63,273 nucleotides of DNA, filler included, from Stramenopiles sp. TOSAG23-6 (GCA_900128565.1; 11 parts of 11 records of this genome joined end to end with filler, not necessarily neighbours in it); one strand, 5' to 3'; shown: positions 5,210 to 46,181, numbered from the whole stretch's first letter. Numbers and translations are program-made. The notes: a model not told the origin generated them from the sequence alone.

Positions 5210-6248
5210 CTAATAAAATCCACCATCTTCACCATCCCAACCATCCTCTCCATCTTCGCCATCTTCATCTGATTCCTCACTATTAGAACTGTCACCATTG
5301 TCTTCTAAATCTGTATCCTCTTCTGGATCTATTCTCAAACCAAATGAAGAATATTTATCCGGTGGAGAAATTTTTATCAGTTCAATATCAAATACTAGAG
5401 TTGCATTCGGTGGAATTTTGGGGGGTAGACCTATATCGCCATATCCTGACTCGGGTGGGCACGTCACAATGCAAACATTGTGAAAAATATGTCAAATCCG
5501 AGATTTGTCAGGTACGAAATTTAAAATTTGTAAAAAAAATTGAAAATAATGATCAAAACGTACAATGCTGACCTTTACTCATTCGAGGCAAGCATTCTTC
5601 AAACCCACGTATTACTTGTCCAACGCCCACTTTAAATTCCATTGCCTTCCTTTTCCATCGCGTATCAAAAATCATAGTCTTGTTTTCAAGCATACACTTA
5701 AAATGAACTCTAACCATGCTCCCTTTTTTAGGAAAATCTACATTATTTCCTTCAAATACAGTCTCCATCAATGATAGTAAAGGTAAAAGTTCTTCTTCTT
5801 CAGATTCTGTTTCGCTTAAGTAATCGCTATTGTCCTCGCCGTCTGAGAAATCATCCTCCCCTCCATCTTCGCCAACAGAGTCTTCACCTTCATCACCTGA
5901 CTCATAAAAATCGTCATAATCGTCAGCATTTAATTTGGAATCTAGGGTATCTGTTATAGGTAAACTTTTATCGTCGAGTAAAACTGTCTGGGTTGCCCCT
6001 GTATTTTCTATATTGTTATCTATTTCCGTTTGTATGTTCAGTGATTTAGGTTCTGGCAAATATTCACTGAATTCACCCGGCTTTGGTTCAATGTTATCTA
6101 TTTCCGTTTGTATATTCAGTGCTTTAGGTTCTGGCAAATATTCATTGACTACAGTTTCTGTGTTAGGATCTGGGGATATTGTACTTTGGTCCAATATCGT
6201 TGGCGGTGATAATTCAGTGGCAACTGAATTATTTGCTTCATCTCCCAT
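5210..6248 (-). CDS. FKBP-type peptidyl-prolyl isomerase with acidic flanks; exons 6248-5564 and 5472-5210
   Basis: [36 protein letters not shown] and [24 protein letters not shown]. The join MSKGQHCIVTCPP has the same length as FKBP12 MSVGQRAKLTISP. Confidence 0.9.
5473..5563 (-). other. Family non-canonical intron (GT..TT, 91 nt)
   Basis: catt|GTACGTTTT..TACCTGAC..CACAATGTTT|gcatt; removal restores the FKBP domain. Confidence 0.85.
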
Positions 6249-8366: not shown

Positions 8367-8466
8367 NNNNNNNNNNNNNNNNNNNNNNNNNNNNNNNNNN
8401 NNNNNNNNNNTTAATTAATTAANNNNNNNNNNNNNNNNNNNNNNNNNNNNNNNNNNNNNNNNNNNN
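8367..8466. other. Artificial contig linker (Ns plus TTAATTAATTAA); the same linker is at 16749, 25118, 33472, 41822, 50170, 58503, 59697, 60889 and 62082
   Basis: Identical 12-mer with stops in all six frames, embedded in N runs. Confidence 0.97.
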
Positions 8467-13200: not shown

Positions 13201-14575
13201 AAAAATCGTTAGGTACAAAATTTCGTACGAAAAATAAATCCGAAATTGAAAAAAAATAAAACATACATAATCACTTTCATCAGACGTTGAAGATCCTGTG
13301 ATTCCTTCTTTATTTCGTGCTCTTGTTTTCACTAATAGCCGCTGTAAAGTTTGTACCTGTGTCCGTAGACGCATTACCTCTGCTGACTCAGCATCGCAGT
13401 TTTGAACTGTTTTATTTTGAATATTTCGGGCACGATTAGCATATCGTAAACAATTAATCGTTTCATCAAAGTTACTGTCCGCAGGTGATATACATGCAAT
13501 CATAAGGGTACGACTATTACCTCCGAGTGAGGACTGTAAAAGTCTAGTGAGTTTAGAGTCTCTATACGGTACATGTATTTTGGGAAAATATGGTCACAAA
13601 AAAAAATCGTTAAATTTTCATAGCAAAAAAAAAGTAAATTTGAAATTGAAGTGAATGTTGAAAACAAACATGAACAGATTGGCGTTTCTTTTCATCACCA
13701 AGTACTGAAATAACATTGCCAAGTGCAAGAAGTCCTGAATTTATAGCAATTCCTTCATGGAGTCTTTTACCCTCGGCCCCAGTGCGTTTAGAACGTTCAC
13801 TCCCAGCAAGATCGACAAGCCGTAATGTAGATCTGCGATAACCAGTATCTCCACTACTATTACTTTCAGTAGTAGCAGCACATTCAATAGTGATATTGAA
13901 TACGGAATGACTACGAGAAGACTGTGCATTCATTTTAGTTCCACCTGTGGCTCTTGCCGTCGCTCCTTGACGAAGGCACGCAGCCATGTCTTGAAGTGTT
14001 GCAACTTTTTCTTCATGCAGACCTGCCACAAAAACAGTTCCAGTGGCGTCTTCTCGAAGTGCTAAAGAATCCCCGGTTGATTTAAGTAAATCGCGTACTT
14101 CATCTCTATATAGTTCTAAGTAAGAGCATGTCATTGTTATCAAAGGTGGTGATGATTCATCTTGTTTAGCGTTTTCCTCAGCAGCTCGAGAGTATAGATA
14201 TTCCATAACTCGAGGAATTACTCCAGCATCTTTACCCAAGGTTGCAGAATCATTTCTACCAGAAGATTCAAATGAAGTTCCCATTGTATGCGTTTTACCG
14301 GAACCAGTTTGACCATATGCAAATACAGTGGCATTGAAACCATCGAAGCAACCTGCGAGAATGGGTTTTACACATTGATCAAACACAGTTGCTTGGGTAG
14401 ACGTTTCAGGTAGTAACACATGGTCGAAAGTAAACTTTTTTTTAGCGCCCAGTAACAGAGCTGGTTCATTTGGAACTCCCTCTACACACAATTGTGCCCC
14501 TTCGGTGAGCTCATGTTCAAGAAGCGGGCGCACGCGCACAGCTACACGAACAGAAGCTTGATCCGACATTGTCAT
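10219..14575 (-). CDS. Kinesin-4 (chromokinesin/KIF4-like) with a C-terminal SAP domain; exons 14575-13670, 13572-13267, 13172-10817, 10724-10219
   Basis: [32 protein letters not shown] and [16 protein letters not shown]. Splicing restores [39 protein letters not shown]. Long coiled coil; SAP-like [28 protein letters not shown]. Confidence 0.92.
10725..10816 (-). other. Family non-canonical intron (GT..AT, 92 nt)
   Basis: acat|GTACGTTTT..AATACAT|gtgca; ACATGT direct repeat; restores the SAP domain. Confidence 0.85.
13173..13266 (-). other. Family non-canonical intron (GT..AT, 94 nt)
   Basis: tat|GTATGTTTT..CCAAAATACAT|att cta; joins two kinesin ORFs in frame. Confidence 0.88.
13573..13669 (-). 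other. Family non-canonical intron (GT..AT, 97 nt) inside the kinesin motor
   Basis: cat|GTTTGTTTT..CCCAAAATACAT|gta ccg tat aga gac restores the conserved HVPYRDS. No AG-ending register keeps this motif. Confidence 0.93.
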
Positions 14576-14940: not shown

Positions 14941-16673
14941 ATGACGGTGGAAGATAATCCATGTGTGGTGTATGGAGCCCGTTCAGCTATCGTGGCGTTT
15001 TGGATCACGTTAAATTCAGAAGCTTCCAAAATAGACACCACGAAACTTCTCGAATTACTCGAAACTGAGGATATTGCTCCGGTCTTTGAACATTCATTTA
15101 GTTTGAAGGAAGTTTCTTTTGAAAGAAATGGTAAACAATTCACAAAGGTTTCGGGTTTCATACATTTTCAAGCGTTCAACCGTCTACAAGTCTGCCAAAC
15201 TGCTTTAGATATATTACCAGGTTTAGCAACTCTAATACATGGATGCGAAAGATTTGAAGTAGAATCGGTTTTCCCCAGTCGATCAGGCACTCGTGATAAG
15301 GAACCAATTCATACTATGGTCAGAAATATTCCAAAGAATGATCGCGAGGCAATGAAGAAATTGAAAAAGAGTATGGTGAAGCAAATTTTTCAAGTAGTTT
15401 TTGGCCCTAATTCGAATTCAATTGGGTACATGCTGAAACTTGCGTCATATATTGCAACACTTAATAATGATGATGTTTCTCTCATGTTGAAGTTGTATGA
15501 AAAAAAAAATACCTCGACTCGAATCAACGGATCAACTGACGAAAGTACGTTTACCTTCTTTTTATACCTTTTTTTTGTAACTAACAAACATGATGAATTT
15601 TGAATTTATTTTTTGCTATTATTTTTATATTTGTACCATACCCAAGCTAACTATTGTTTTTACTAAAAAAAATATTTTTCTCAAATATATGTTGCTGGAG
15701 AGAATTTGTTGGTAATTTCCTCTCATCCAGAGGTAATCTATTATTAGAAAAGGCAAGACAAGTTGATAGAAATGACACAATTAATGCATGTTTAATTTTT
15801 TTCAAATTCCGTTTTTTTTTGTAAGAAATTTTGTACCTAACGATTTGGTTTTGAAATATTTTTCCAAAATACATGCATTAGTAGGCGAAATTGTCAAACC
15901 AGCTGGATGCTCTACAGTTCGCGAGCAGTATATTGCCGGAGTGTTTGATGAACATACAGCCCTGTCTCATTATGGTGTGATGGTGTCTTGGCCTTGTTTC
16001 TGTTGTGAAACAAAGCAAAACAGTTCTGTACAAAATGATACATTTGAAGAAGGTCCATCTGCCAAGCGTCAGAAAACTGATGAAACTGATGATACATCGA
16101 TCAAAAAAGATGATACATCCATCAAAAAAGATAAAGGTTCTGTTACTAATGATGAAAATGGTAAATGTGAGGTTTGCAATCTTGTAGATAGTTTCGATAA
16201 TTTTGGTGAAAATATTAAAAACTTTTTCGAAAAAAAATTCTCTGCGTATAGAGTCAAAGTGAAAAATATTACAATGTGTTACAATAGTATGACAGCCATG
16301 GTGTATTTTGAGGATTGTACGTTTTCATCATGAATGTATTAATTTAATTTTTTTTATAGTTGATTTGTACCTAACAAAAATTAAAAAAAATATATCTCCA
16401 AACAATTTATGTTGTCCAGCATTTCAAAGGTTGAAAATTCGTGGTACTCCTGAATTTATATACACTCCTTCAGTAACTGCTCAAGCTGTCAGTCGTTTAG
16501 TACTTGTCGATCCAGAGATTATAGAGGAAAAACTTCACGATTGTATTACAAATTCGATAAAAAACAAAAAAAAGCAACCTGACGATGATGATGATGATGA
16601 TGATGAGATGAAACAAACGAAGTCAATCGATGTTGATGACCTTGGAATTGAGTTTGACACTAGTCGAATAGAT
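14941..16673 (+). CDS. Hypothetical protein, 3'-truncated; exons 14941-15544, 15691-15785, 15875-16316, 16411-16673
   Basis: Four segments form one open frame after removing family introns; no recognised domain; start codon uncertain. Confidence 0.6.
15545..15690 (+). other. Degenerate family intron (GT..AT, 146 nt)
   Basis: a|GTACGTTT..GCTAAC..CTCAAATATAT|gt tgc; in-frame join. Confidence 0.7.
15786..15874 (+). other. Family non-canonical intron (GC..AT, 89 nt)
   Basis: aat|GCATGTTT..AAAATACAT|gcatta; ATGCAT direct repeat. Confidence 0.8.
16317..16410 (+). other. Family non-canonical intron (GT..AT, 94 nt)
   Basis: t|GTACGTTTTCATCATG..TACCTAAC..CAATTTAT|gt tgt; in-frame join. Confidence 0.75.
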
Positions 16674-16892
16674 GTATGTTTTATTTTTTTTTCAAATTTG
16701 AATTTTTTTTTCGTACGAAATTTTGTACCTAACAATTTTTTTTTGAAANNNNNNNNNNNNNNNNNNNNNNNNNNNNNNNNNNNNNNNNNNNNTTAATTAA
16801 TTAANNNNNNNNNNNNNNNNNNNNNNNNNNNNNNNNNNNNNNNNNNNNTGTCATTTTCTTCTGTCTATATACATCTCTAATGGTTCTGAATA

Positions 16893-19116
16893 CGCGTCAA
16901 CAAACTTGTTACAGTTAGACCTCTTAATAGTCGATATAGTGGGGAAATTGGCGACGTTGTCATTGGTCGTATATCAGAAGTTGGTGCTAAACGTTGGAAG
17001 GTTGATGTGAATAGTTATCAAGACGCTGTTTTGATGTTATCGTCTGTAATTCTTCCTGGTGGTCAGCAAAGAAGGCGCACATATGAAGATCAGCTTCAAA
17101 TGCGTGACGTTTTCGTCGAAGGTGAACTTTTATCTGTACGTTACATGATATACAAAAATAACTACATGTCTCTAACATACGCGGTTTCATTTGCCAGAAG
17201 ATTTCATGTGGCTTTTGGTTATTTATTCCCGCTACAATGCTATCACGGTGATACAGTTTGTAACACGTGTCTAGCGGCACTCGTATTGGATCAATCAACG
17301 CCTTCTTATTTTTTATTGCACATGTCATGAATATCAAATCAGGGCACGTGGGATTACATCCATTGCAAATATGCTATAGGACCATCTGTATTTGTGTTTT
17401 TATTATTTTTATTTGTTTTCTTCTGTATCGGGATTACACCCAGCCGTGTTGCGACTGATCCTGTGCCGTACACCAACTCCGTAATCCTAAAGTATTGTGG
17501 TTCTTGTTTATACGCGGTTATATATTTTGTCCCCTGCATTGCCCTTACATACTATGTACTGCTGGCGATTCTTGTGGATAAATTATTTTAATTGCAAAGT
17601 ATAACAACCCTTTATGAATAATAGAATTTCACCCGTCGAACGGTGGAGTAAAGTATTTCGTGTTAAATAGAATGGATGATCGTTTGTATGATATGTTATT
17701 ATTATTTCAGACTTGATCTCCATTATATTAATGGCACAAATAATGGATACTTTTTTTTCTGTTAAACTACATATCCTTTACATCATATACTTTCATGGGT
17801 TACTCTTAACGAAGTGTCTTCTATTGTTGTTATCTAATTATTTCTACACGAAATAACTGGTGATAATAATCATGAGAAGTTCACATGAGATCAAACATAA
17901 CCCTATAATATTAACATTACACTACGTAGATGCTTCGGCTCCGAATGTAATATAAGTTAGTTCACATTGTATAATAATATTAGGTTGAAGTCCTCTGTTC
18001 CCATGACTATTTTACCTTCAATTTTATTGTTCTAGAATACATATAAATATTAACACCCTTGTAAAAATAGCTGCCTTAAAAGTTGGCTTGAATGTTTTTC
18101 GTACTATCAAGTCCGTTCCCGGTAGCAAGAATAACCCGTGAGATTACTTCTTTGAACGGAAGTGCTCCGTTGTGGTGTACTCGGCTATGTCCTTATCTGC
18201 TTCACCAAGATAAGTGTACGAACGAATAAAACAGAACGGCAAATCATGAATGTATGTTTTATTTTTTTTCAATTTCGAATTTATTTTTCGTACGAAATTT
18301 TGTAAATTTTGTACCTAACAAAAATTAATTTTTTTTTTGAAATATTTTTTCACAGTACATTGGTATTAGCAGAAGATTGTTCAGCAATGTTTGGATTTGA
18401 TCACTGTTTTTGCTTTAAGTGGTTTGCTTAATATTTATCATATCTTTTGCAGAAGAGAGATTGTTTATTTTGTATTGAGGTTTTCTTTAACATTCCTCAA
18501 AAGTAATTTTACGCAAAATACTCACATTATATTCTAGTTTGTATAATCCATCTTAACAAAATAGGCTGAAGTACAGAACTTTTTTGCTGATGGTGCTATA
18601 TCTCTACACACAAGATCATTAAAATATGGTAAATTAGAAAATGGCCAATTATTAACTGTCCCGACGTCTCTTATTAAACGATTGAAAAAACATAATGTAA
18701 AGTTGCCGGGTATTGATGTTCAAGTTACCATCGGTTGCAATGGTTATATTTGGATTACAAAAGTTAACAAATTAGATGCTAGTGGTGATGGAGGTGCTGG
18801 TGGAGGCGCAGCACATAGACGTATATTCACTGCGGAGGATACTGAAGCAGCAAGGAAAGAACATTCTGAGCTGATTATAGACCCTGAATGCAGAGTACGA
18901 ATATCGCGTGTCGCAAATGCTGTTACTGTATTGAGTCGTGGAATGGCAGAAATAAACATTTCAAGCTTGATGTGTGTATATACTGCATCGTTGAAATTTA
19001 ATATGGAACCTAAGAAAATGCTAGAAGGTAAAAACGTGAAAAAACTTCTTTTGCATGTGCATAACAACAGAGACCTCTCGATAATTGAAACTGGCGATAA
19101 AATGAATATTACGTGA
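16893..19116 (+). CDS. RRP4: Exosome complex component RRP4, 5'-truncated; exons 16893-17135 and 18565-19116
   Basis: RVNKLVTVRPLNSRYSGEIGDVVIGRI..RWKVDVN..LSSVILPGG..RRR..EGELLS|AEVQNFFADGAISLHTRSLKYGKL..IGCNGYIWI. Confidence 0.93.
17136..18564 (+). other. Canonical GT-AG intron, 1429 nt
   Basis: tct|GTACGT...CATCTTAACAAAATAG|gct gaa; the phase-0 join restores LSAEVQ. Confidence 0.88.
18252..18360 (+). mobile_element. Family element nested inside the canonical RRP4 intron
   Basis: aat|GTATGTTTTATTTTTTTTC..TTCGTACGAAATTTTG..TACCTAAC..CACAGTACAT|tg; the flanks are non-coding. Confidence 0.85.
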
Positions 19117-19499
19117 ATATTAAAAAAAAAGATGCAGCACATTTATATATGAAAATGTGCGTTTATAATGCAATAAATTACTGATCAACTATTTTGTTTA
19201 TTTTGTTTATTTTTATTTTGTGTTTTTTTCATTATAGAATTAGAACTAGGGTTTTTAGAATCAGAATGTAGGATCTATACCCACTATTGTTTATTTTAAA
19301 TTTCAAAGCAAAATTATATCTCTAAATATCATTCGAATCTTCGAACCTCCTTTTTGTCATGGCAAATTAGATTCCCGATAAATTTTGTGATAAAGCGTTA
19401 TTCAAGGTGAGTCATTTAAAATATTTTATTTTATCTCTCCAGTGTACAACAAATCAATTGATGTAATATAATCTATACACTTTACTAGTAAAATTGATC

Positions 19500-22400
19500 A
19501 TTAACATTAGATGAAGAATGGGAATTATAAATTGCTCATTCCAAACTTGTCCTGCAGATTTGGATTTAGTTTTACTTCAAAGGATAGCACCAATGTAAGG
19601 AAAAATCCTACTTATTCAATTACTTCCTTGTCTACTCATTTTTTAATCATGCCAGTTCTAGTTTCTTTTCCATCAGATGTTGTAACAACACCTCGTAATA
19701 TAATTTCGATGGAAGGATCTGACTTTACATTTTCATCTGAACTTGGTATTCATTTGCCCTTCAACAAGTTTATCACTAGCATGAAGGAAAACATGCACTC
19801 ATTTGGTCATGAGTAAAAAATATATTTTTATTTTTAAAACTTTCAATGTTTATGCTTTTATAATATACATTTTTGAATCTATCGTTACTGAATACTTGAA
19901 CAGTCACTTTTGTCCCATTTATCTCTAGTATTTCTATTCCCAAATCGATCGATCTACGAAAACGCCGCATTTGTTGCATGAATTTGTGGAGCACAGAGAT
20001 TTCATTTTACTTTATGTCATTTTCTTCTGTCTATATACATCTCTAATGGTTCTGAATACGCGTCGCGCTTACACGTAGCCTTTTTCGGCGAGCCCGAACT
20101 CTACCTAATCGACCACGAAATAACGATTGTATATTTACTGCGGCTTTCTCCACTTCGTGTGGATATGTAATTGATGCTAGTGATAAATACCCGTTCGGGT
20201 GTTGTATTATCCTCAACGAAGAGAGTGTTAGTGCAGCTAATGACTTGCGGTTCTTCGGATGTAGAATCTTAAAGTTCAAATCTAAGCCTTTCGCGGCAGA
20301 TTTCTTTGTATTATTTAGATTAGTTATTACGTTAGCATTACTAAATTTACTAGATACACTAGAATTAACAAAATTATCAGTACTTTCAACTCTATTGCTA
20401 TAATATAAAAATCGTGTTGGACTAATATTTTTTGCCAATAAAATCAGTCGTTCAGGACTCATTGGTAGTTCCATTATGCTTCCCGATTTAGGTTCGACAA
20501 CTGTCGCAGCTAACCACGCACCTTCTTTGGTTTTCTTGGTGATATTTTCACTATTGTCACTAATAAGCACGATACAATACATGCCTGAAATCATTGTTGC
20601 CTGTCGCAATAGTATATTACTTGCACCAGATCGTCCGTGTGGTATATCATTAATCTTTTGCTCTTGCGAGTCAGTAGACCCAGAAATCTCATTGAGGGAT
20701 ATAGCTTGGTCAAAAGTTTCTTTTAACATCATTTTGTTTCGAGTTCGACCAAATAGACTTCTAGATGTATTCTTAATTTTCTTCGAAAATATTAATCTAC
20801 TACCACTTTGATTCCATGATAAATGTTTTACTAAATTCACAAGACTACCACAATGCCAAGTCGGTTACTTTTGGAATTTACATATTTTCTGGTGTATCCG
20901 TATAAAGACCAATCTGCCGTTCAAAATAATTTCTGTCACTAGATTTGTACTTAAGCAAATTCTTCTAGTCATTGGGTGAGTTATACACAAGGCACGAATT
21001 TTCCTATTTTTCACAATTTTCCAGTGTAAACCAATAGCACTAAATAAGGCCGAGCTAGTCCATTTTCCATGTCCTTGATGACCTCCTGGTGTTTCAGCAT
21101 ACAAATGTAAAGTAGCCCCAGTGATTGAAGAAACAGCTTGAATATTAAATGCACCGCCATCAAATTTTACTTCGTTAGCAGTGCAGGGAATAACTAAAGG
21201 GCCAAGGGTTATATATCCTTCCCAAACTCGCATGCAAAAAGGTACACTATTAACCATTAATCGCTGTGAATTTACAGGAAACCGTATATTGCTTTCCAAT
21301 GTGTTTCTTGTATTTCCGTTATAAATATCCTCAACTATGAATACTCTGGAAACTACAATATATTGCATATAGCTATTTAAATTCATTTGTAATAAAAGAC
21401 TTCCTAAACTTTTACTATTTATATTTGTTTTTCTTTGGGAGGGCGAGGATGATAATGATGATGAATTACTACTAATTATTTTGTTTTTTTGAAGTTTCAA
21501 TTGAGCTAATAATTCATTTTCGTCCCTACATTCGCATATTCTAATTGCACGTTTTCTTGGAATATACAATCTATACATACATTGAGTCCTTATATTTACT
21601 GCTGTCACTTGTATTCCATTCTGTTTTGCAACACTTGCACTGATTAAGTATCCATTGTTGGTGCATCGACGAGGCTTCAGACTTTGACGTTTGCTTTTAC
21701 TTACTACAAGATAATCTATCTGTGTTGAATTATCTGTTGTTGTGTTTGTTCCGTGCCAATCCGCAGTAATCTGCTTCGATTTCATATATTGTCGATAATG
21801 CCATGTTCTGACTTGTCCTCTAGCAATTTCTTCTCTTTGTTTCAATAATTGATCCCTTTTCTTTTGTGCTTCAATTTTCTGAGAAAACTTGGCCATTTTA
21901 AGCTCCCGGTATTTTTCTGTTTGTTGAAATCTTTTAAGTTGGTCACCACTAGTATTTTGTGTGATAGAATCCGTCTGAAGACGACGAGATATAACTTTAA
22001 TCATTTTGTTTCTTCGGATGATTTCTTTGCTTATATCTTGCTTTTCCATTGTGAGTGTATTTAGTTTGTATTCTAACATTCTCATCTTTTTCCTACAATT
22101 TAGTTTTGTTGTTTTTACCTTATGCATACGTTTATTGAAACACATTTTACGCCATTTGATGTCAGCCTCATTCAATTTTGGATAATTTATACCACCATCT
22201 TTATTCTTGTTATTTCCGTCACCCATTGTGTTTATAAATTCTATACTTAAATTTTTGAAATTACTTAAGTCTAATTTAGTAATTTGTTTTTCACATTTAA
22301 TTATTCTACGTTTAAGATTTTCCAATCTACGCTTTGTTTCTCTAATTTTATCACAAACCTTGTCAAAATCAAACTTCGGAAATTGTGAATACTTATGAAT

Positions 22401-23252
22401 ACATGAATTTGAAGTTTCGTCATTGCTATTTCCAATTTTACCAGTTGAAATGGAGGTACTATTATTCTTATTATATTCAATACTAAGGGTATCATCAGTA
22501 TTAACCGAGTCACTACGCTTAGCAGGATGTAAAAATTTGAGCAATTTAGCGATACAAATGTGACCTTTTCTATTACACACCCTAGATAATAACCACTCTA
22601 TTTCAATTGGTAACATTCTGCATTTTCTCCTCCGAAGTATTTGTCTAAATCTTTTTGTATAAATTATATTTAAATGACTTTTACAGCTTGTAGAAAATAA
22701 AGTATGTGAAATAGTACCTTGATTATTGTATAGTGCTGATATGAGTTTAAATCTTACAATAGATGTCATATTAGAAATATGTCTTCCATGCAATTTCTCT
22801 TCTTCTATAATCAATAAAACACATTTTTTAATTCGTTTTTGATCAACATTATTAGCTCCTCTTCTCCACTGCGTACTATTTTTATTATCTTCTTTCATTT
22901 GGTGATCTAACCCTACATTTTGTATGAATGGATTGCGTAATAAAGTGACACCTAACCACGCAGTCAAATTTTTATCATGCTTGTTTATATAATCAAGGTC
23001 AGTAGGTATGCGAGTCAAGTAGTTACTCCCTTCATAAATATAAGGCAGGCCGTTTCCCCGCCTCCATTCAATTATTGACTCAACAACCTCCACTGTAGAG
23101 AGGCGCAACAGGTCCATTAGTGCAACTATTTTTCGCCATCGATTCATTTTAGCTTTAGATAGTTCACCTTCATTGGGACAACATACAAGAAACTGCAAAC
23201 GCTCAAGATACTCTTCGCGTAGTTTAGTCTTATTTGTTACAATCGTAGACAT
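19500..23252 (-). pseudogene. Large IQ-motif protein gene interrupted by in-frame stops (probable pseudogene or sequence errors)
   Basis: ORFs 23252-20865, 20840-20043 and 19994-19776 share one frame and are separated by TAA/TAG. IQ motif AAVNIQSLFRGRLGR; ankyrin-like remnant PNLQDKFG near 19550. Confidence 0.5.
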
Positions 23253-23744
23253 AGCACTGGGTCAGGGTTAGGGTTTTGTTACAATTGTAGACATAGCACT
23301 GAGTATACCGTTGCGCTTTCCTATGAAAAGAAAGAAAAGCAAAGAAGTATATTACTATACACTTGGTTTGTCTTCATATCGACCATATTCTTATGTGTGA
23401 GATCGAGTTACTCGGAGTGTAGTAGACACCACTCGGAGTCTCTCTAGTCACAGAAAAAGAGAGGAAAGTAAGAACTTGAAGGTTCACCTGGCAGTTACAA
23501 TTTTTTCACGGCGCAAACCTGCTGCTTTTAAATTATCGTTATTAACTTAAGTTATATTTTGAAGAAATAATAACGAATAATAACTGATCTTCACACCACA
23601 GAAGAAGAAGTATAGGCTATTAGTGTATCGGAAAATGAAAGTCGTTCAGAATTAGAAATTAGATCCTTCCAACGAGAGAAGGTTGTTTCAAATTGAAATA
23701 TAGTCTGCTAAATAAGTTATATCTAGATTAGAAGTACGCATAAT

Positions 23745-25117
23745 ATGGTGGGGCCGTCAGCTGCAGAACCCTCGATGAGCAACAATAATCTAGCTCAAAC
23801 ATTTAGGAAGCGAGTTATGAATATGTATACAAATTCTAATCGTGAGACAGCGAAGCGAATTTTTCGTGGGTGTGGCCGATTTCCTAATTTATACATATTT
23901 GTATATTCATTACTAACATTGTCACTTTTAGTAACAGGTTTAATGACATTTAGTGTGATAGCATTTGTCGAATTGCTTTTTGGAATATATTATGCCTGTG
24001 GACTTCACAAAAATAGGTTCGGATATCTACCCAGTAAAGTGCCTTTCCGTATTAAAATATGTAGATATGTCATCATATTAAACCTTACCAAGCTCATCAT
24101 GAATGGTATTTATCAACTTTTGATCATGTCAAGTTCTGTAGAAAGTGTAGAACAATTCGGCGACATATCTTTGGCACTAGGATTTTCTACAACAATATCA
24201 AATGTTGTGCTTGAGATAACGTGTTTGGTAATTTCGCTGATATATTATTGTATGCTTAAAACAGTGAAAATAGTCGATAACGAAGATAAATGTCCCCAAA
24301 CGGTTACGAAGCTGAAAAATAGAGGTGTTACGTATATGATCATTCTATTAGTGCTTTCTCTTCTTACTGCAGCCATTTTCCCGACAGTATTGACGCTGCC
24401 ATTCTTCGTTTTCAGTTTGTTTCTTATGTTCTACGACAGTGTCGGTATATATACACCACGTGTATTACATATATTCTTAATTTATAGTTTATCTTACACA
24501 TTTGTGATGTATATGTATCAACTGAGATTTTTCGAAGAAAAAGAAATTCTATGTAATTTAGGATTTTTCAAAATCACTTTCTGGCCAGGTAAAGAATTTA
24601 TCTACGACGATGAGACATTTTCTGGAAAGAAATGCTTGGTATCACACAATGTCACTCAAATATTTAACGCGGTAGCATTTGCTTTTGCGTTAATTATTAT
24701 TCCAGTTACTTTTGTTTTTCGTTCAAAGATACTGAAACAACAAAAATTAATAATACGTAAGACGGGGGGCTCCCATGGATAAGCACATATATACACATCA
24801 TATGCCAATGGGCGGCCTTCCACATCAAGTAAGGAGATTTTATATGCGTTTCAAATACATAATGTTTTACTGTTGCATGATGCTGGTTTCATGCTCGTCA
24901 ATTTCTCTCATCAGTTTACTCTATTTCGTGTTGATATGTATGGTTACGATTTATCCTATGTTGGATAAATTCAAATATGTAAGAATTCTATTTATGCTCA
25001 ATTTAGGGATTTTAACTTTGCGTTTCTCCCTTTCTTGCTTTTACCCTTTTGAGGAACAAAAAACGTATAATGATGGTAATTTTGGGAGTACGACAATGAC
25101 TAATTATTTTGAAATGA
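23745..25117 (+). CDS. Multi-pass membrane protein, possibly a Piezo-like N-terminal region; frameshift near 24770; 3'-truncated
   Basis: Many transmembrane helices, including SISLISLLYFVL. The two overlapping ORFs meet near a G6 run. Confidence 0.45.
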
Positions 25118-29834: not shown

Positions 29835-32800
29835 ATGGCTTCCGTGCCAAAAAAAGCGTCAAAGCTTGCAAAGATCACTGCGTTGGATGTAAGTTTTGGT
29901 ACAGCGTTGGCTCAAAAAGCTCGAACAAAGCTGCATAAAAATGTCAATAGACTTGCAGATGTTCCCACATATGTTTGGATTCATCATGGTACAACTGCAA
30001 ATGGTGTAACTGATATCCGAATCTTGATGGGTGATTCTGCAACGCCTTCAGGGTTTGTCAAGATCCCTCGTGACCTCAGCCAGGGTTCAGAACCAAAAAC
30101 TTTCCTGTGCTATAAAACTTGTCCACAATCTGAAGCTGATCCTATTACTGGTATAGAGATTGTATATGACGATGAAGCTCCTCCTCCAGGATATGAAAAG
30201 ATTTCTGATTCTCTTGCTGGAGATAATGATAGGGTATATTTGTGTTATACTCGGCAGGAAGCTGGGGGAGCAGAAGATGTTTGTTTTCATCATGAATTTT
30301 TCAACTTTACGGTTTTGTACCAAATCTAAGTATCTCACAAATTTCAAAGTTTAGACATATTTTTTCACTACCAGGATTGTTGGTCGGCGCATGATCTTGT
30401 TATTGGTGATTTTGTAGATTGTACCGACACCGTAGGCAAGTGGTGCAGTGCACAGGTGATTCAGGTAATTAGCGAATCCCAGGAAATTAGAATTCATTAT
30501 CAGGGTTGGAGCGCCAAATGGGACGAGGTAATCCCAATGAGTTCCAGCCGTCTTGCTCGCAGTGGTCGACATGTAAAGGGTTCCACTGGGCAGACACAGC
30601 AAATTGGATTTGATTGGTCAACTCAGCACGATGAAGAAGAATTAGATATTAGAATAGAACAAGTGAATCAACTCATTGAAGGAAAACTTCCTGGTGGTGA
30701 GGAGTCTACTGCTTGGCAAATGGAAATCGATTTCTTTACACAGAATTGTCTCAAAGGAAATTTACCTCCAGGTTTAGATAAGAAGGTAGGAATATTCTTA
30801 CAAGCTATAATAAGGCTAGTAGCCCAACGGTTGAAATGCATAGATGAACCGCTCAGTGAACGCATGTGCAGTGCGATGAAACTATCTCTGGGTGCAGACC
30901 CCCAGCACGTATATTTCTTTAATACATATGGTAGAATGAGTACCAGTTCTCGAATGGGAGACTTATTTGGAATCACTCAGCCGTGTGACGGAGAATATGC
31001 CGTACAAGATGCTCGATCATCCATGTATTTAGTTGCAAATATAAATTTATTTGGGAAATTAGGTGGTTTTCAAGCAATTATGGATCGAATTTTACAAAGA
31101 GGTTCAGACGATGATAGTATTTCATCGAAGGGTTTGCATCTATCCAAAGAAAGCCTTAATGGTACGTTTTCATCATGATGAATTTCGAATTTTGTTTTTG
31201 TAGTAAATTTTGTACCTAACAAAAACATTTTTAAACATTTTTTTTTCAATACATGTGTTGATCATCATGTTCCGTCACTTCCTACTCCAACTCATGAGAT
31301 GATTGGTAATGAGAATCATGTTACTGATGAAGTTCAAAAAAATGAAACACCCAATACAAATAAAGAAGATCCTAACCCTAACGGTAACATTATTGTTACT
31401 GAAGATGATACAGAGGAAACTCTGCTAGTACATATATGTGTTATGTTTTTTCAAATTCGATTTTTTTTCGTACGAAATTTTGTACCTAACAATTTTTTAA
31501 ATATTTTTTTTTAAATATATTTCCGAAATACATTCTTCAATAGGAAAAGTGAATGGTTGTGGTACTACCGGTAAAAAAATATCTCTACAGGAGTTAAGTT
31601 GTATCATTTTGTCTTTAAGATTTGGCTGTGATACTTTTTCTGCCAAATTTAAAAAATTATATTTCGAAAAATTTTCTGATGCTGTTGTTACCAGGCTGTT
31701 GTCATTGACCGAAGCAGAACTTCGTGGCCTTGAAGAAAATACTCTCCATGACACTGTTCGAACACTTGGTGACCTTTTGACTACTGTTTTGAAAGGCAAT
31801 GTATGTTTATAGGATCAATTTTAAATTCATTTATTTTTTTATAGAAAATTTTATACCTAACAAAAAAATTGAAAATATTTTCCTAAAGTACATGCTGTAG
31901 ATAAAATGACTGAGACATTTGCGCTTGCCTTTGCTCTTCGTTTAATGAGATCAACTCAGTTAGCTAAAAGAAATCGCGGACTTGACCAGTTATTGGAAAT
32001 GGTTGATAGAGTTTTACGTAAGGAACGTAGAGATGCTTGTACTTTTTTTTTACAAAGAAAATTCATTTAATTTATTTTTTACAAAGAATTTTTTTTCTCT
32101 AACACATTTCGAATTTGACATATTTTTCACAATATGTTCTCGGCACATGGTGGAAGTATTGCAATGGCTGGTGATAGTAATTTTGGTTCAATAAATCAAG
32201 GTGTCAATGGTAGTCATGGCATTGGTGGGGTGTATGCTCGAAGACAAGTTGGCCGTTGGGATGCTCCACAAAAAAAAACCAAATGGGTAACTGTGGCTTG
32301 GCTTTCAAAATGGATCGCACAAAATCGTGTTTTGGAAACGCATGTATGTTTTATTTTTTTTCAAATTCCAAATTTTTTTTTTTATAAAAATTTTGTACCT
32401 AACAAAAAAACATTTGAAATATTTTTCCAAAATACATGTCTCAGGTCACGACTCCGAATTACGTCGTTGCGATAATTTACTTCAATTCCAGGCTGCTGAG
32501 GGCAATCTATCTGGAGAAGTTCTGTCTATTTTATGGAAACAAGTACACGAAGCTGTTCCTGCTCGCGTGGAGGCCGTCCATGTCATTGTGGAACACTTAC
32601 TCGAGCTATTGGATGTTTCTCAGATGCGTGAATTATTTGCATTGGTAAAGAAAACTGTTCTAACTACGGAAGCATGTACTATTTTAAGAAGATTTACGAG
32701 GTATGGAGTAGCAAAGGAGTCTGAAATGTATGGCAATGATCCCAGTAAGCAAAGTGAACGTTGTTGGTACGCTCTTCCGTTATTTTGGGACGTTCTTCAA

Positions 32801-33419: not shown

Positions 33420-33806
33420 GTATGTTTTATATGAATTTCTAATTTAATTTTTTTTTCATACGAAATTTCGTNNNNNNNNNNNNNNNNNNNNNNNNNNNNN
33501 NNNNNNNNNNNNNNNTTAATTAATTAANNNNNNNNNNNNNNNNNNNNNNNNNNNNNNNNNNNNNNNNNNNNTTTTTATAGGAAATTTTGTACCTAACAAA
33601 TTTTTTTAGATTTTTTTTGAAATATTATTCCAAAATACATCAAACATGATTCAATTTGGTAAGCCAAAATTTTTACCTCTTGAATGTTCAGAAGATTTGG
33701 AAGCCAGAGGCAGATGGTACCCCGCAACTAAAACTGAATGGATACTCAAAGGTGTTAAAAGTTACGCGTGGGTTACGCCTGCTGAAAAATTAGGTAGTAG
33801 GGTAAT

Positions 33807-37688: not shown

Positions 37689-38729
37689 TTATCTTCTCAA
37701 AGGTTTCAACCCTAATTTTTCCCGTTCTAAATTCCAATACTCCACACTATCCTTTATCACTCCCTGTTTTTGGGATAAAGCACTGTTCTTGTTATTTGTT
37801 GAGGTTTTTACATCACGTGGTACTAACCCCTTTCGTGTACGTTTTTTTTCTTTTTTTTCTGCTTTTTTTATTGCTTTTTTTAACTTTTTGGCAGCACGTT
37901 TTTCTTTTTTTTTCTCTTTCTTTTGTTTCTTCTTTTCTCTCTTAGATTTTTTACTAGTGCTAACACTAGGGATGCTATCGCTGCTATCTTCTCGATTTCT
38001 CTTTAGAGGTCTCTTTGAAGGTCCTTGAATAGAAGTGGAAACTGCTTTAGTTTCATTGAGTTCGGAAATTTCCATGGCGTCATCTTGAACCGACATAACG
38101 TCTGCATCATTTGGTACTTCACTATCTTCGTCAGTTTCATCGTCACTATCTGGTTCAACGATACTTTTATATGGCTCAAGAACCCCTTGATCTACTAAAA
38201 GATGGCGCTGAGGGAGATGTGGAAGGCCAATCTCACAACTGACATTTTCAGTGAGCATTTGTTCTATAAATTGGTCGACTGTTGTGACCTCCCAACCAGT
38301 CATAGTTCGCACCCGTAAATTTCTATAATCGTTATATAATGGCTCAAGATATTTGTAGATATCGAGTATTTTCCCCGTTAAGCGCAGGTACAAAGCACCT
38401 AGGACTCTCACGTACTTATTTTCGTCGTTTTTCACAAACTCACGTACAATTTCCAGCTCTGGTTGTATCTGAAGCATTTTGAGTAGAAGACACATGAATG
38501 GTGTGGGCTTTACATTTGCAGAATATGAACCTCCTACAAACTCTAATTCCATGGCCTTATCTACTACAGTCTCTGCTGTTAGCGCAAAACAATGCTCTTT
38601 CCAATATACATTCTCGTAAATTCTAAAACGTAGAATTTTCTCTATTAAATTTTGGGGATCTCCACCATGCACTTTCTGTGCCGATGGATCCGTACTTACT
38701 GATGTCATCTGACGTGATGAAATCGACAT
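37689..38729 (-). CDS. PRP38: Pre-mRNA splicing factor PRP38 (PRPF38A-like); intronless
   Basis: TDPSAQKVHGGDPQNLIEKILRFRIYENVYWKEHCFALTAE, KPTPFMCLLLKMLQIQP, KYVRVLGALYLRL, LEPLYNDYR; C-terminal NLEREKLGLKPL. Confidence 0.93.
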   Translation of the reverse strand: MSISSRQMTSVSTDPSAQKVHGGDPQNLIEKILRFRIYENVYWKEHCFALTAETVVDKAMELEFVGGSYSANVKPTPFMCLLLKMLQIQPELEIVREFVKNDENKYVRVLGALYLRLTGKILDIYKYLEPLYNDYRNLRVRTMTGWEVTTVDQFIEQMLTENVSCEIGLPHLPQRHLLVDQGVLEPYKSIVEPDSDDETDEDSEVPNDADVMSVQDDAMEISELNETKAVSTSIQGPSKRPLKRNREDSSDSIPSVSTSKKSKREKKKQKKEKKKEKRAAKKLKKAIKKAEKKEKKRTRKGLVPRDVKTSTNNKNSALSQKQGVIKDSVEYWNLEREKLGLKPLRR

Positions 38730-39031
38730 GACTACTCTATTGTAAGAAACGTGCTCAAATGAATAGATGCAATGACTCCTCCAGTTAGACCTGGGATGGA
38801 ATAGTTTTCTGTGTGGGTCGCGACGAAAAAACAAATGAAAACGAATGCATTTTTGTAGAAGCCTAAAGCAGGCAGGTTTGCGCATCGATTTATTTGATTG
38901 ACTTTTGTTTGTTTTTGTTGGCCGTTGTTGGCACCGAAAACACGACGCAAAAGGTATTATTATTAAAATTAAATAGTCTTTCTCTTAATAGATTCTAAAA
39001 TTTACTTTTTATCCTAACTCCGTTAATCAAA

Positions 39032-41096: not shown

Positions 41097-41756
41097 CCTA
41101 TTGGACTTGGTTGGCGTGTACCAATGTTTTTAATATCACCGTGGTCACGTGGAGATTATGTATTTTCCGAAGTTGCTGATCATACCAGTGTAATTCAGTT
41201 TATTGAGAAAAGATTTAATGTACATTGCCCAAATATTTCACCATGGCGACGTGCAGTGACGTCTGATTTAATTGCAGCTTTTGATTTTACACATCCTGAT
41301 TTTTCTTGGCCGAAATTGCCTTCAACAAAAGGAAATGTCGAAGCATCAAAAGAACAATGCAGTAATGATCCGCCTCCTACTATACCTTCTATTCAAAGTA
41401 TTCCAAAACAAGAACCAGGAACAAAGCTGCTCAGACCCATACCTTCGTATGTATTTGATATAAAAGAATCTGTTGATTATAATGGAGAAAAGATATCTTT
41501 AACTATATCTCATCGTGGAGAGGATAATGCAACTGCTGGACATTTTAATGTGTATGTTTTATTTTTTTTCAATTTTTTTTTCGTACGAAATTTTGTACCT
41601 AACGAATTTTTTTTCAATTTAGAATTTATTTTTCCAAAATACATGTATAATCATATAAACAACAATGTGAGAAAGTATACAGTTGAAGGGACAAAACAAT
41701 TAACGGGTACCTGGTCTACTGAAAACCCATTAGGAGAATATTCTCTTTATCTTCAT
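41097..41756 (+). CDS. C-terminal part of a bacterial-type phospholipase C (phosphoesterase family plus DUF756-like domain); exons 41097-41551 and 41645-41756
   Basis: PIGLGWRVPMFLISPWSRG..SEVADHTSVIQFIEKRF..PNISPWRRAVTSDL..AFDF; HFNVY..RKYTVE..W..GEYSLYLH. Confidence 0.85.
41552..41644 (+). other. Family intron (GT..AT, 93 nt, in frame and stop-free)
   Basis: gt|GTATGTTTT..AAAATACAT|gtat; the ORF reads through it, but removal restores the DUF756-like spacing. Confidence 0.75.
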
Positions 41757-41921
41757 GTACATTAATTATCATTCATTTCAATTTCGGATTTTTTTTTGTA
41801 CCAAATTTCGTACCTAACAAANNNNNNNNNNNNNNNNNNNNNNNNNNNNNNNNNNNNNNNNNNNNTTAATTAATTAANNNNNNNNNNNNNNNNNNNNNNN
41901 NNNNNNNNNNNNNNNNNNNNN

Positions 41922-43198
41922 TTTTATGTGTATTCTGTTGATGATCACTAAATAGTTGAATTTCAATTTTTCTAGGATTAGGGCTAGAATTGAATGACAA
42001 ATTATCAGATGTATTAGATGTATTATTATTACTATTATTATTACTATTATTATTATTATTATTATTGTTTATGTGAATATCTTCATACCAACCTGTTAGA
42101 TCGTCAAAAGAATTTTGATGTTTTACATTGAGTGATGTGCTAGGATTATTTTTTACATTTCGTGTTTTTTGTGTTTTTTGTTGATTTCCATCTTCATAAA
42201 AAAAAATATTCATTTCTGTTTCGTCATTAATACAATTTTCCTTATGATCATTCCATTGAAACGTTTTATTTTTTTTATTTTTTTTAATATTCGTACGAAT
42301 ATTGATACCTAAAGATTTCTTTGGAAGCTGAAGCATAAAAATACGACTACCTGAAAAAATATTTCTACCTATTTTTGTACCTAATGAATACAAAATAGTA
42401 TTACNAAAAAGTANAATANGTAACATGACAAATATAGTCATCATATGTATTCGGTATATTCAAAATAGCTAATGTTTTACAAGTTTTGTCTTTTTCATAT
42501 TTTTTATGATTTTTGTGTTTTTCAGAATTTTGAGACATCTGATTTTGATTTGTACAAAGTAATTCAAGTAAATATATCCTATGGTGATAGCCTATGCTTA
42601 TATAACACATTGTTGTATCATTTTCATGAAGGGAAAGAATGAAATTGGGTACATAATTCTTCAAATTCGTCTTTTTTGTAAACAAATTAGGGTTAGGATT
42701 CATCCAAGTTTGCTTGTTGTTGTTGTTGTTGTCCCCAAAAACTGGTTTGTTACTACATTTATGCATCCATGTTTCATCATGAATTTTATCTTTGTATAAT
42801 GGATAAGACAAGGGATATGCATATATAGATATGCTATCGTATGGTATGTTATCTAGAGGACCACGCCAATTTGAATAGACACAAATATAGAACTCATTGT
42901 TTCTGCTTTCTAGAGGCATTGGACGGTCCATCTGGAATTGAGTACAACTTTCTACAGTAATAATGCAATCATATACTTTTGCATATTCGACACAATATAA
43001 ATATCTAAACTGAGTCTTTATGTCATGTATCTTCATCCCAGTTGTAGCAGAAAATACATGAATTCCATTATCCAGAGACCCAATTAAAAAAACACCGTCG
43101 TTTATATCCTGATTCGTGTCACAGACTATGGAAAAATACTGGCGTGACTTTACGTGAGGAAGTGAAAAACTGAACGAACTGTCCAATATAGATGGCAT
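41922..43198 (-). CDS. HPS3 (BLOC-2) N-terminal-like protein; frameshifted at ambiguous bases and 3'-truncated (mirror copy 48893-50169 on plus)
   Basis: VEYAKVYDCIITVE and ICVYSNWR resemble HPS3 LAYSEAGDYLVAIE and LRAYVNWR. Confidence 0.45.
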
Positions 43199-43591
43199 GT
43201 CTTACTTCCATATATAATCTACACAAAACCGTCAAATATCCAACCTTGTGTATGCACTTTTAGATGCTGGACTTTATTATTAAAGGTGGTTAAGGCGTAC
43301 TAGTCAAAAAAAAAGAGATCAAAAAAGCTAAAAAAATATTCCAATTTACAATTTAAAAATTGGTCGCAAAATCTCATCAAGGGGTGAAATTGGTCAGAGA
43401 TTCGATTGTAAAATTTTTGTTTTGACGTTTTTCATTTTGTTTTTTCATTTTGTACGAAAATTTTATACTTAAAGCGACACACGACAGTTTGTTTGACTCG
43501 GGAGGAAGAGAAGAAAATCTTTTCTTGGAGAGAGAGAATACAATACTGATCTTTTGTTTTAAACTTTTAGTCCTCTCTCTACATGTAAACA

Positions 43592-45858
43592 ATGTTATCC
43601 TATGTATTGCAAATACTATGGAAAACCGTACTATACTTGATGTGTATTCCGTTATTCTTTTTTATTATTGGAGTAGCAAAGGATCTGCTAAGTTCTTCAA
43701 AACAGCTGAAACCAAATTTTTTCAATGAGAATTCACCGCGTTCAGACTCTGACGAAAAAAAACAAACGAAAGAAAACTTCGGCTTTCAAATAAAAAAACA
43801 ACACAAAGGTGAAGAAGACTCTGTAAGTAGTAATGATGAAGCATTCTTCGATAGCGATGAAAATCTTTTAAATTGGAGAAATACTCAACAGCAACAGGAG
43901 AATAAGTCTTTCCGTCCCATTCAAAAACAGCCAAAACTACACCTACAAAAATCTGAAACAAAACGTGCAACATCTGCATCTACTTTACGTGATCCATCCG
44001 ACAGGTTCAAGAAGAGTAAATTCTCAGAGACTTCATCAAGTGCATCTAATATTCACGCTAGTTATAACTCTTTTATTTCGTCGGGTCAATCAAATATTTC
44101 AAATTCTTCAAAAAATCAAGTGAGTACCCTCCGTCAACGTAACACTCAAAAATACAATACAAAATCAAAACAACGGCCAAGTATAAACAATGGTCGATAT
44201 TTCACGTCTACAATAAATACTATTCAAAAAGGGAAAAATAATGGAATGAGTAATCCTACCTCTACAACAGCAACGGTAAAAGATGATTCACAAATCCGCA
44301 CTAACGTTAAAAAAAATATTGGTACAAGTCATGCTAGGGTTAAGGGCATAAAAAAAAGCAAAAGTTATCGTCGATTATTTTTCTGTACACAACTTACTCT
44401 TGTCATAATGGTTATTAGTCATCTATTACTGTACAATAATGATAATAATGATAATAATGATGAAAAATTAGAAAAAACTGTTTTTTTTGATGAAGAGAAC
44501 ACTAATCACGAAATCAAGAACAATTCATTTTTTTTTCCTGAACATTCGACACAGTTTTATAATGCATATAGAGGTAATATTATATCTTTTTTTGCTTATA
44601 ATTTGAATCTTGTCTATAACATTCAGTACATTAATATTATCTCTCATCCATTTGAAAATGTTGTGAAAATATTTCAGAAAAGTAAATTCGAAATTCAAAA
44701 TATCTCAAAGAAATTTTATGTTACCCCTAACCCTAATCGAAAAAAAAATGATGAACAAGAAAAATACACGAAATATTTCATTTTGATGAGTAAAAAAATG
44801 ACGTCATCAACACCAAATATATTACAAACAACACGTTTCAGTTTTTTATGGCCACCGCACGTATGTCATTTCGAATTTCGAATTTAAAATACAATGTTTT
44901 TTTTTTTTTTTTTTNGTTTTCATACGAAATTTCATACCTAACAAAACAATATTAAAAAAAAAAAAAAAAAAAAATATTTTTCACAATATATATACTTGGT
45001 GCTAGTATACTATTAGTAACCGATTTACGTTGGGAAGCATGTATATTATTATGCATTCTGTTATTTGTTCTTTTTGATATTTTTTTTCTAAACAATAGAA
45101 TATTAAAGTGTCACAACAGAAATATGAATCGAATGAATAAAAAAATGTCAACAATTTCGAACTTTAACCCTAACCCTAGTGTGCTCCACACGAAATCATG
45201 TAGATTATATGATACAAGAAACAATTTTCAAAACAAAGATGAAACAAAATATAACGAAAAACAAAAACGTGAAATGTTCAATGAAAAAAATATAAGAAAC
45301 CCTAACCCTAATGAAGTCAGAGAAATAAAAGAAACAAAAGAAACAAAAGAAACAAAAAATATTCAAAACCCTAACCCTAATAAAATTGAAACAAATGATG
45401 ACACAAAAAATGTAACTCCTTTTCCTACTATTCCGCATCAACAAGGGGAATTAAATGAATTAGGTGAAGATTTACATAATGTATGTTAGATTGTATCATT
45501 GAATATCCAAAAAAAAATTAAATTTTTTTTTTCATACGAAATTTCATACCTAACAAATTTTCAAAAAAAAAAAATCAATTTTTTTTTTTTTTTTTTTTTT
45601 TTGGTAGAGAATTCTATACCTAACAAAATTTCAAAATTATTTTGACATATGTATCAAAAATAAATGTTGTTGAAGATTCCTTTGAGGCATTTCAAGGATT
45701 TATTGATGAAGATAATGAAAATTCAATTACCAGCGGGTTTAAATTGAAAGATGACGTCACTGAATTTTTTTCTGATTTATATTACGATATATCCACATAT
45801 ATATTTGGCGAAAAAATAATTGAACATTCTGAAAATGATGATAGTACTAGTACTAGTT
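43592..45858 (+). CDS. Hypothetical low-complexity membrane protein; exons 43592-44860, 44992-45480, 45651-45858 (mirror copy on minus at 46233-48499)
   Basis: Forms one open frame after removing family introns 44861-44991 and 45481-45650. Confidence 0.55.
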
Positions 45859-45909
45859 GTATGTTTTTTTTGACTATGAAAAATTTTGTACCCAACAAAA
45901 AATCAAAAA

Positions 45910-45940
<31 letters not shown>

Positions 45941-46150
45941 CTTTGTTTTTTTTTTTCTATGAAATTTTTTGCCTAACAAATTTTTTTTTTTAAATATTTT
46001 NNNNNNNNNNNNNNNNNNNNNNNNNNNNNNNNNNNNNNNNNNNNNNNNNNNNNNNNNNNNNNNNNNNNNNNNNNNNNNNNNNNNNNNNNNAAAATATTTA
46101 AAAAAAAAAATTTGTTAGGCAAAAAATTTCATAGAAAAAAAAAAACAAAG

Positions 46151-46181
<31 letters not shown>

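Follow-up and report, generated by a model that had tools for sequence, protein, structure and literature searches.

A copy of an AT-ending intron family nested in a GT..AG intron of the RRP4 gene of a marine stramenopile

Nearly all introns of eukaryotes end in AG. How, then, is the 3′ cut chosen for an intron that ends otherwise, and can such an intron be removed where no exons surround it? These questions are raised by the RRP4 gene of the marine protist Stramenopiles sp. TOSAG23-6, as it stands in a window of 63,273 nucleotides (nt), the whole stretch of DNA that was analysed (11 records of GCA_900128565.1 joined with filler; AT-rich and eukaryotic in composition, G+C 0.23-0.38). The gene contains a canonical GT..AG intron, inside which lies a complete, sense-oriented copy of an intron family whose removable unit ends in AT, and a contig from a marine RNA library holds the outer-intron sequence on both sides with exactly this copy absent. 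The arrangement is that of an introner copy nested in an older intron. We consider it probable that an old, ordinary GT..AG intron of RRP4 later received one sense copy of a transposon-like intron family, and that this copy is a self-contained splicing unit.

Removal of the outer intron is required by the protein. The RRP4_S1 domain (PF21266, E 3.1e-31) lies on 16890-17135 and the KH_6 domain (PF15985, E 2.4e-11) on 18565-19116, both on the plus strand, and human RRP4 (6d6q_H) aligns with its residues 65-145 on the first of these exons and 146-212 on the second, with no residue left between them. When 17135 was joined conceptually to 18565, the alignment ran without a gap across ELLS|AEVQ in all three full-length protist homologues returned by a protein search. 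Positions 17136-18564 must therefore be removed, and their removal suffices for an intact protein. The intron has the ends, the donor consensus and the branch motif of a canonical U2-type GT-AG intron (GTACGT, TCTTAAC and TAG), the motif lying 5′ of the first AG. A first-pass annotation, made by a model from the sequence alone, had proposed this 1429-nt GTACGT..TAG intron and had put its branch motif about 8 nt from the AG. The protein alignments confirm the intron at 17136-18564, and the motif is found at 18551-18557, with its branch A at 18556, 8 nt before the last intron base. Within the last 120 nt of the intron, AG dinucleotides end at 18452, 18455, 18457, 18459, 18479, 18503, 18537 and 18564; of the YTNAY motifs, TCTTAAC alone is followed by 18563-64 as the nearest AG, those ending at 18503 and 18537 lying upstream of it.

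The frame of the S1 exon stays open for 64 codons into the intron. A search for other canonical introns from open frames gave no reliable set: a loose filter left 1468 candidates, and a strict one left 66 that were mostly chance and dropped the RRP4 intron itself because its frame runs those 64 codons on. The canonical class in the window thus rests on this one outer intron, the sole non-family intron among the three that protein or Pfam continuity places there. We also considered that the outer intron might be an expanded family copy, its donor GTACGTTACATGAT being like that of one subfamily and its end AAAATAG being like AAAATAC. This was rejected, as a hidden Markov model (HMM) of the family has no match at either end.

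The position of the intron was compared with RRP4 orthologues, a check proposed in the first-pass annotation. Gene calls of two relatives begin with unrelated residues, after which AEVQ follows, namely P0002 (61% identical, LHLFINAQ|AEVQ) and P0089 (LLYVSQ|AEVQ). Since both frames break at the same codon, the outer intron looks like an old, ordinary spliceosomal intron. Back-translation of ..INAQ in P0002 permits ..ATTAAC GCN CAG, and is compatible with, rather than indicative of, a branch-like motif that again lies close to the AG.

The nested copy is a full-length member of a different kind of intron. The family HMM, built from 17 copies, has a single significant match in 17000-18700, at 18252-18359 and over HMM positions 1-90 (E 2.1e-15), and everything else there has E of at least 0.47; this result means both that the outer intron is not a family member and that the nested copy is complete. 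Its layout is AT|GTATGT..TACCTAAC..42 nt..CACAGTAC-AT|, with one AT at 18250-51 and the other at 18359-60, so that the complete sense copy with AT repeats described in the first-pass annotation is exact to the coordinate (18252-18360). The insert begins 1116 nt after the outer donor and ends 191 nt before the outer branch motif, and it splits no outer signal. Donor (GTAYGT) and branch core ((C/T)TAAC) are common to the two introns; what sets them apart is the spacing between branch and cut (8 versus 42 nt) and the last dinucleotide (AG versus AT). In place of the usual CACAATAC or CCAAAATAC, the nested copy ends in CACAGTAC, which places a CAG 5 nt before the family cut. A predicted fold pairs the ends of the unit (z-score -2.65). 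Its first 55 nt match another copy, at 13268-13214, with 98% identity, and its overall identity to 15 others is 61-82%; judged by these figures the nested copy looks young.

The AT repeat leaves the register ambiguous, and the unit could also be read as 18250-18358 (AT..AC) or 18251-18359. The first of these registers invites a reading as a U12-type AT-AC intron. Introns of that type have a donor resembling ATATCCTT and their branch motif near the 3′ end. The unit would start ATGTATGT and have its branch A about 40 nt from the end, and this candidate was rejected.

The rule for the 3′ end of this unit comes from its relatives in the window. The 18-nt family core TTCGTACGAAATTTTGTA has 30 matches there with at most three mismatches, against 0.28 expected, and the HMM has 45 matches at E up to 0.01. 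Copies are located in kinesin, FKBP, phosphoesterase and other open reading frames (ORFs), that is, many similar copies occur in unrelated genes, as in an introner family. From its 5′ side, a family member consists of a 2-nt direct repeat (mostly AT), GTATGT, a T-rich stretch, the palindrome TTCGTACGAA and TACCTAAC; then follow 21-54 nt (mostly 33-46) to AAATAC or CAATAC, and the second copy of the repeat. The distance from the branch A to the cut is likewise 21-54 nt, mostly 33-46. When the unit from GT through the second repeat was cut out, at least 39 codons were open on both sides in 16 of the 19 parsed copies, so exact removal restores the reading frame for the family. Those that fail are the RRP4 copy, a copy bordering an assembly gap and a third whose donor was misplaced in the parse; the first two have no open frame on both sides, and around the RRP4 copy there is no frame to restore. 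The 2-nt direct repeat matches in 12 of the 19 copies as parsed, and in 3 more with the donor at GTAYGT. The RRP4 copy bears the same marks of transposition (AT/AT repeat, termini GTA..TAC). Across the parsed copies the cut falls two bases after TAC whichever bases these are (AT, GG or AG), which points to a 3′ end that the element itself sets, rather than a scan for AG.

Two more introns of the window can be located by Pfam continuity, in FKBP_C (profile positions 5-62|61-94) and in kinesin (1-282|275-327), and both gaps are family matches. The copies concerned are divergent and lie exactly at the profile splits, at 5478-5563 on the minus strand (HMM E 0.00059) for FKBP_C and at 13574-13651 on the minus strand (E 9.5e-06) for kinesin. 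Two other copies, 31801-31893 and 41552-41644, contain an AG between branch site and cut, and their frames stay open only with the cut at the terminal AT, so an AG is passed over there too.

Evidence on the nested copy itself comes from RNA libraries. Parts of the stretch are held by 24 marine metatranscriptome runs from 13 studies, and Logan contigs of four runs, one per study, were aligned to it; such contigs are without strand information, DNA can be present in an RNA library, some records had been filtered out, and depth or holes in the cover prove nothing. From library X2 came a contig of 181 nt, of which 168 letters equal 18084-18251 without a difference and the last 13 letters, TGGTATTAGCAGA, equal 18361-18373. 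The contig therefore joins 18251 to 18361: the unit 18252-18360 is absent exactly, and outer-intron sequence is kept on both sides. Had the CAG served as the cut, the contig would have continued with TACATTGG. This is the form expected of a splicing intermediate from which the nested unit has gone first.

From this anatomy we infer the following on the history of the insertion, on the unit's autonomy and on the order in which the two introns are spliced. A family member of the form GTATGT..TACCTAAC..TAC, with a 2-nt direct repeat, usually AT, on either side, would have inserted into the old RRP4 intron. The copy would bring its own donor and branch site, and its 3′ cut would fall two bases after the terminal TAC, at AT. 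It could then be removed alone from RNA that still holds the outer intron, the CAG five bases upstream being ignored, and would work as a splicing unit even without exons around it. The 3′ end of the nested unit is transcribed 204 nt before the outer acceptor, so the unit can be removed first. Since the copy interrupts no outer signal, the order of the two splices would be free and not obligatory; the outer splice alone would also discard the nested copy.

The main uncertainty is whether the X2 contig is spliced RNA or an empty allele, and the second is whether the interior of the outer intron is a stable RNA. On the first point the strongest alternative is that X2 comes from an allele that never had the insert. 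The nested copy would then leave with the outer intron, its own splicing there being unproven. Several observations weigh against our interpretation and are best taken together. Removal of the unit with one AT repeat restores the pre-insertion sequence, so the X2 contig could equally be an allele without the insert. X2 is from another strain or haplotype (4 differences in the 346 nt of 17429-17774), and the near-identity of the first 55 nt to the copy at 13268-13214 is what a young insert would have. The junction is represented by one contig with 13 letters past the joint, and, as said, the contigs are unstranded and their libraries may contain DNA. The insert at the RRP4 site is known only from the window's own assembly: contigs from libraries X1 and X5 that enter the element have other flanks, from other copies. 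The age of the outer intron, in turn, depends on a shared position that rests on the start points of the relatives' protein calls. Against an empty site stand the coding copies of the family, 16 of 19 of which must be removed at the same GT..AT ends to keep their frames open, and the nested copy itself, in which every family signal is intact. On balance we regard an empty site as possible, though clearly less probable than removal of the copy as a splicing unit.

On the second point, a separate and stable non-coding RNA could have the nested copy as its intron; such an RNA would be a nested transcript or the outer intron itself, persisting after its excision. Contigs of all four libraries, from four studies, cover parts of 17222-17774, and one covers 18084-18251. 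These two blocks are largely exon-like in G+C (0.35-0.42), most of the rest of the outer intron having 0.26-0.31, so that the G+C-richer blocks of the interior coincide with the parts covered in RNA libraries. The fold of 17222-17774 has a z-score of -2.0. Yeast introns that persist after excision are reported to be defined by a short distance from branch to 3′ site (10.64898/2026.01.21.700889); here it is 8 nt. Yet 18084-18251 has a fold z-score of -0.05, and cover in a library is no proof of transcription, as the contigs give neither strand nor ends. The content of the interior speaks against this alternative as well. Rfam gave no match at E up to 1 in 16000-19500, where uncurated RNAs may still be present, and ARAGORN found no transfer RNA (tRNA) in the outer intron. 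The scan for small nucleolar RNAs suggested in the first-pass annotation thus gave no match to a curated family. Coding signal was lacking too. Among 22 interior stop-to-stop ORFs of at least 30 amino acids none reached the Pfam cut-off (best E 0.028), and the longest, 86 amino acids at 17331-17588, had no homologue among 14 candidates. A codon-usage score trained on 13 long ORFs of the window gave log-odds of 0.35-0.61 in the RRP4 exons and at most 0.05 in windows inside 17192-18541, in any frame and on either strand. A stable RNA with the nested copy as its intron appears unlikely.

These results also settle the surroundings of the nested copy. The best open frames across its cut are 7 and 22 codons long, and with none of the 22 ORFs at the Pfam cut-off and codon usage at or below 0.05, the claim that the copy lacks coding flanks holds. 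The further claim that the element inserts independently of coding context gains one case from it, the RRP4 copy in non-coding sequence. Apart from the family unit, no part of the interior has a copy elsewhere in the window, and repeats within the intron are only short, chance-like pairs. A sequence like a telomerase template, TAACCCTA near 17893, was rejected as within chance, and so was the notion that interior RNA is more abundant than the messenger RNA, as contig depth and holes cannot rank the parts of a gene and some records had been filtered.

The remaining contigs bear on the gene as a whole. One from X1 spans 16892-17080 and runs on, upstream of 16892, into exon sequence (..GCAGTTCA) absent from the window, which means that the RRP4 message is spliced at 16891|16892, after AT. 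The joint 17135|18565 was not among the contigs of the four runs, which can miss such joints, and these contigs leave 17081-17221, 17775-18083 and 18374-19034 uncovered; X2 gave two contigs on the stretch, neither with family sequence or RRP4 exons. Such holes are no evidence either way. The tail of the upstream intron (16849-16891) has no similarity to the family by HMM and nevertheless ends in AT, so AT ends may not be confined to the intron family. This qualifies the division into two intron classes made in the first-pass annotation: GT..AG with 8 nt from branch to cut and GT..AT with 42 nt do occur together in one gene, and the division is less clean than was supposed.

A third alternative, that a family copy or foreign sequence was misplaced between the RRP4 exons during assembly, is very improbable. 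The window is built of contigs joined by 10 linkers of the form 44N-TTAATTAATTAA-44N (e.g. 8367-8466, 16749-16848, 33472-33571, 41822-41921, 60889-60988 and 62082-62181), and at least 6 of the 10 abut a family copy, so the assembly seems to break at the family repeat. The first 50 nt after a linker, 16849-16898, repeat 20015-20064, and the 5′ exons of RRP4 are absent from the window. In 16849-25117, however, there is no N, so a single contig carries both RRP4 exons together with the outer intron and its insert. Over 16892-17080, 17222-17774 and 18084-18251 the sequence is matched at 99-100% by independent contigs, and the frame of a relative breaks at the same codon. Least credible of all is a true twintron, where an outer signal is rebuilt only once the inner intron has been spliced: one intron does lie inside another, but the outer donor (17136-41), branch motif (18551-57) and AG (18563-64) are intact at 1116 and 191 nt from an insert that interrupts none of them. 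For RRP4, removal of this nested intron is therefore optional; it is no strict twintron or stwintron, and the label twintron-like of the first-pass annotation does not fit.

How does this compare with known systems? Introns of Trichomonas and Giardia have a fused branch-site/acceptor motif, with the branch A within about 7-8 nt of the AG. The RRP4 outer intron belongs to a different lineage, and the short distance is here a matter of one intron, perhaps joined by the P0002 orthologue through back-translation. A search of the literature on introners with GT-AT or other non-AG ends found no paper on the subject. Introner elements of Micromonas occur as remnants inside conserved canonical introns, and nested elements are reported (PMC3879977). 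Like them, the present elements form a multi-copy intron family; unlike the buried Micromonas copies, which are described as degenerate and deprived of their splice sites, in a family with canonical ends (PMC3879977), the RRP4 copy is complete, ends in AT and is exactly absent from an RNA-library contig. In the introners of Chrysochromulina the element carries the 5′ site and the 3′ site comes from the target-site duplication (PMC9860276). Here too the element supplies the GT, the last bases removed are the second copy of the repeat, and the length of the message is unchanged; in contrast to Chrysochromulina, the repeat measures 2 nt and is AT as a rule, which gives the removed unit an AT end in place of AG (PMC9860276).

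Fungal stwintrons share with this locus a U2-type intron nested in another and similar copies that have spread, but their inner intron splits the outer donor, branch site or acceptor and the order of splicing is forced (PMC8469720, PMC12403724), whereas no outer signal is split here. Introns with non-AG ends and border repeats are described in Amoebophrya (PMC7789003) and in Fritillaria, where they are read by diverged U2AF paralogues (PMC13326754). The family resembles both in its transposon-like introns, short border repeats, paired ends and non-AG 3′ ends beside canonical introns. It differs in being a single family in which the donor is a normal GTATGT, the TACCTAAC branch site is strict and the AT end is for the most part fixed, the border dinucleotides of Fritillaria and Amoebophrya being many (PMC13326754, PMC7789003). 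With the stable excised introns of yeast (10.1101/426049, 10.64898/2026.01.21.700889) the outer intron has in common the short distance from branch to AG, 8 nt, and the presence of its interior in RNA libraries; compared with those introns, persistence of the RRP4 intron RNA is a lead only. We think it doubtful that the outer intron persists after excision, or is transcribed alone, as a stable non-coding RNA from which the GT..AT intron is spliced by the element-end rule, past the CAG. If it were so, a transposon-derived, non-AG intron would be spliced without a surrounding exon or reading frame.

A large family of introns in this genome has a removable unit with AT at its end, and the RRP4 transcript combines an AG intron with a very short distance from branch to AG, a family copy free of the influence of reading frame and exon signals, and a built-in CAG control. 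The locus is thus a compact natural test of how a non-AG 3′ site is chosen. If the X2 contig is spliced RNA, it is the end of the element itself, rather than a search for AG, that fixes the 3′ cut in this family, and the element brings along all that its removal requires. If it is an empty site, the insert is polymorphic in the sea (present or absent), which would mean recent mobility and a family that is still moving. Either outcome bears on the origin of new introns and on the failure of gene finders on such genomes. The features of the locus are collected in Table 1.

Table 1. Features of RRP4, its outer intron and the nested family copy (positions in the window)
Feature	Position	Strand	Basis or remark
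Upstream RRP4 intron tail, 43 nt, no AG, ends in AT	16849..16891	+	CTAAT branch-like A 11 nt from end
RRP4 exon, S1 domain	16892..17135	+	Pfam RRP4_S1, human RRP4 alignment, X1 contig over 16892-17080
Outer intron, 1429 nt, GTACGT..TAG, phase 0	17136..18564	+	removal needed for gapless RRP4
Outer donor GTACGT	17136..17141	+	read in sequence; same hexamer in some family copies
Interior block, exon-like G+C mostly 0.35-0.41, about 0.29 at 3′ end	17222..17774		contigs of 4/4 RNA libraries; no coding signal
Interior block, G+C 0.38-0.42	18084..18251		X2 contig without nested unit
Left direct repeat AT, stays in RNA	18250..18251	+	sequence, family parse
Nested family intron, 109 nt, GTATGT..GTAC+AT, RRP4 sense	18252..18360	+	HMM full length; X2 contig joins 18251 to 18361
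Family palindrome TTTCGTACGAAA	18286..18297	+	core match, 0 mismatches at 18287-18304
9-nt tandem duplication AAATTTTGT, 2.1 copies, private to nested copy	18295..18313	+	repeat search, family alignment
Family branch motif TACCTAAC, branch A 18318	18312..18319	+	42 nt from cut
CAG within element 3′ end, not used as acceptor in the X2 joint	18353..18355	+	X2 loose end begins 18361, not 18356
Right direct repeat AT, last two bases removed	18359..18360	+	X2 contig, family parse
Outer branch-like motif TCTTAAC, branch A 18556	18551..18557	+	8 nt from last intron base
Outer acceptor AG	18563..18564	+	exon frame begins at 18565
RRP4 last exon, KH domain, including stop codon	18565..19116	+	Pfam KH_6, human RRP4 alignment

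The 5′ border of the gene in the window deserves separate mention. Directly after the linker, the 50 nt of 16849-16898 recur without change at 20015-20064, beyond which the two sequences diverge; the duplicate consists of the tail of the upstream RRP4 intron and the first 7 nt of the exon. It could be a real repeat or an overlap of 50 in the assembly graph, and because of it the assembly of 16849-16891 is uncertain. A tblastn search of the whole window (E up to 10) did not recover the approximately 50 N-terminal residues of RRP4, and the upstream exon known from the RNA contig is absent as well. The join before 16849 is therefore not the true neighbourhood, or sequence is missing there. Searches of other collections for the locus returned nothing: among metagenome contigs, a protein query with RRP4 exon 3 gave 141 pattern matches of which none was confirmed, and a 25-nt query just 5′ of the insert gave no match; a 25-nt query from the interior of the outer intron had no match in viral contigs or in contigs of prokaryote genomes.

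Two further joints were seen in the RNA-library contigs. The X2 contig over 17429-17774 ends in 11 letters that equal 17635-17645, and this joint, which goes back 140, could be a tandem duplication in another strain, a circular RNA or an artefact of complementary DNA. Just 3′ of RRP4, a contig from X5 joins 19211 to 19998 and omits 786 nt (19212-19997), whose ends are not GT..AG on either strand; it could reflect a deletion variant or an unusual splice.

Elsewhere in the window, family-like matches and ORFs are mirrored on opposite strands from about 42377 to 49714 around 90 N at 46001-46090 (e.g. the pairs 44919+/47172-, 45531+/46560- and 42377+/49714-). The stretch is very AT-rich, and the mirroring is either an assembly artefact or a long inverted duplication. 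The window also contains a gene for the splicing factor PRP38 (PF03371, E 6e-58), at 37692-38984 on the minus strand.

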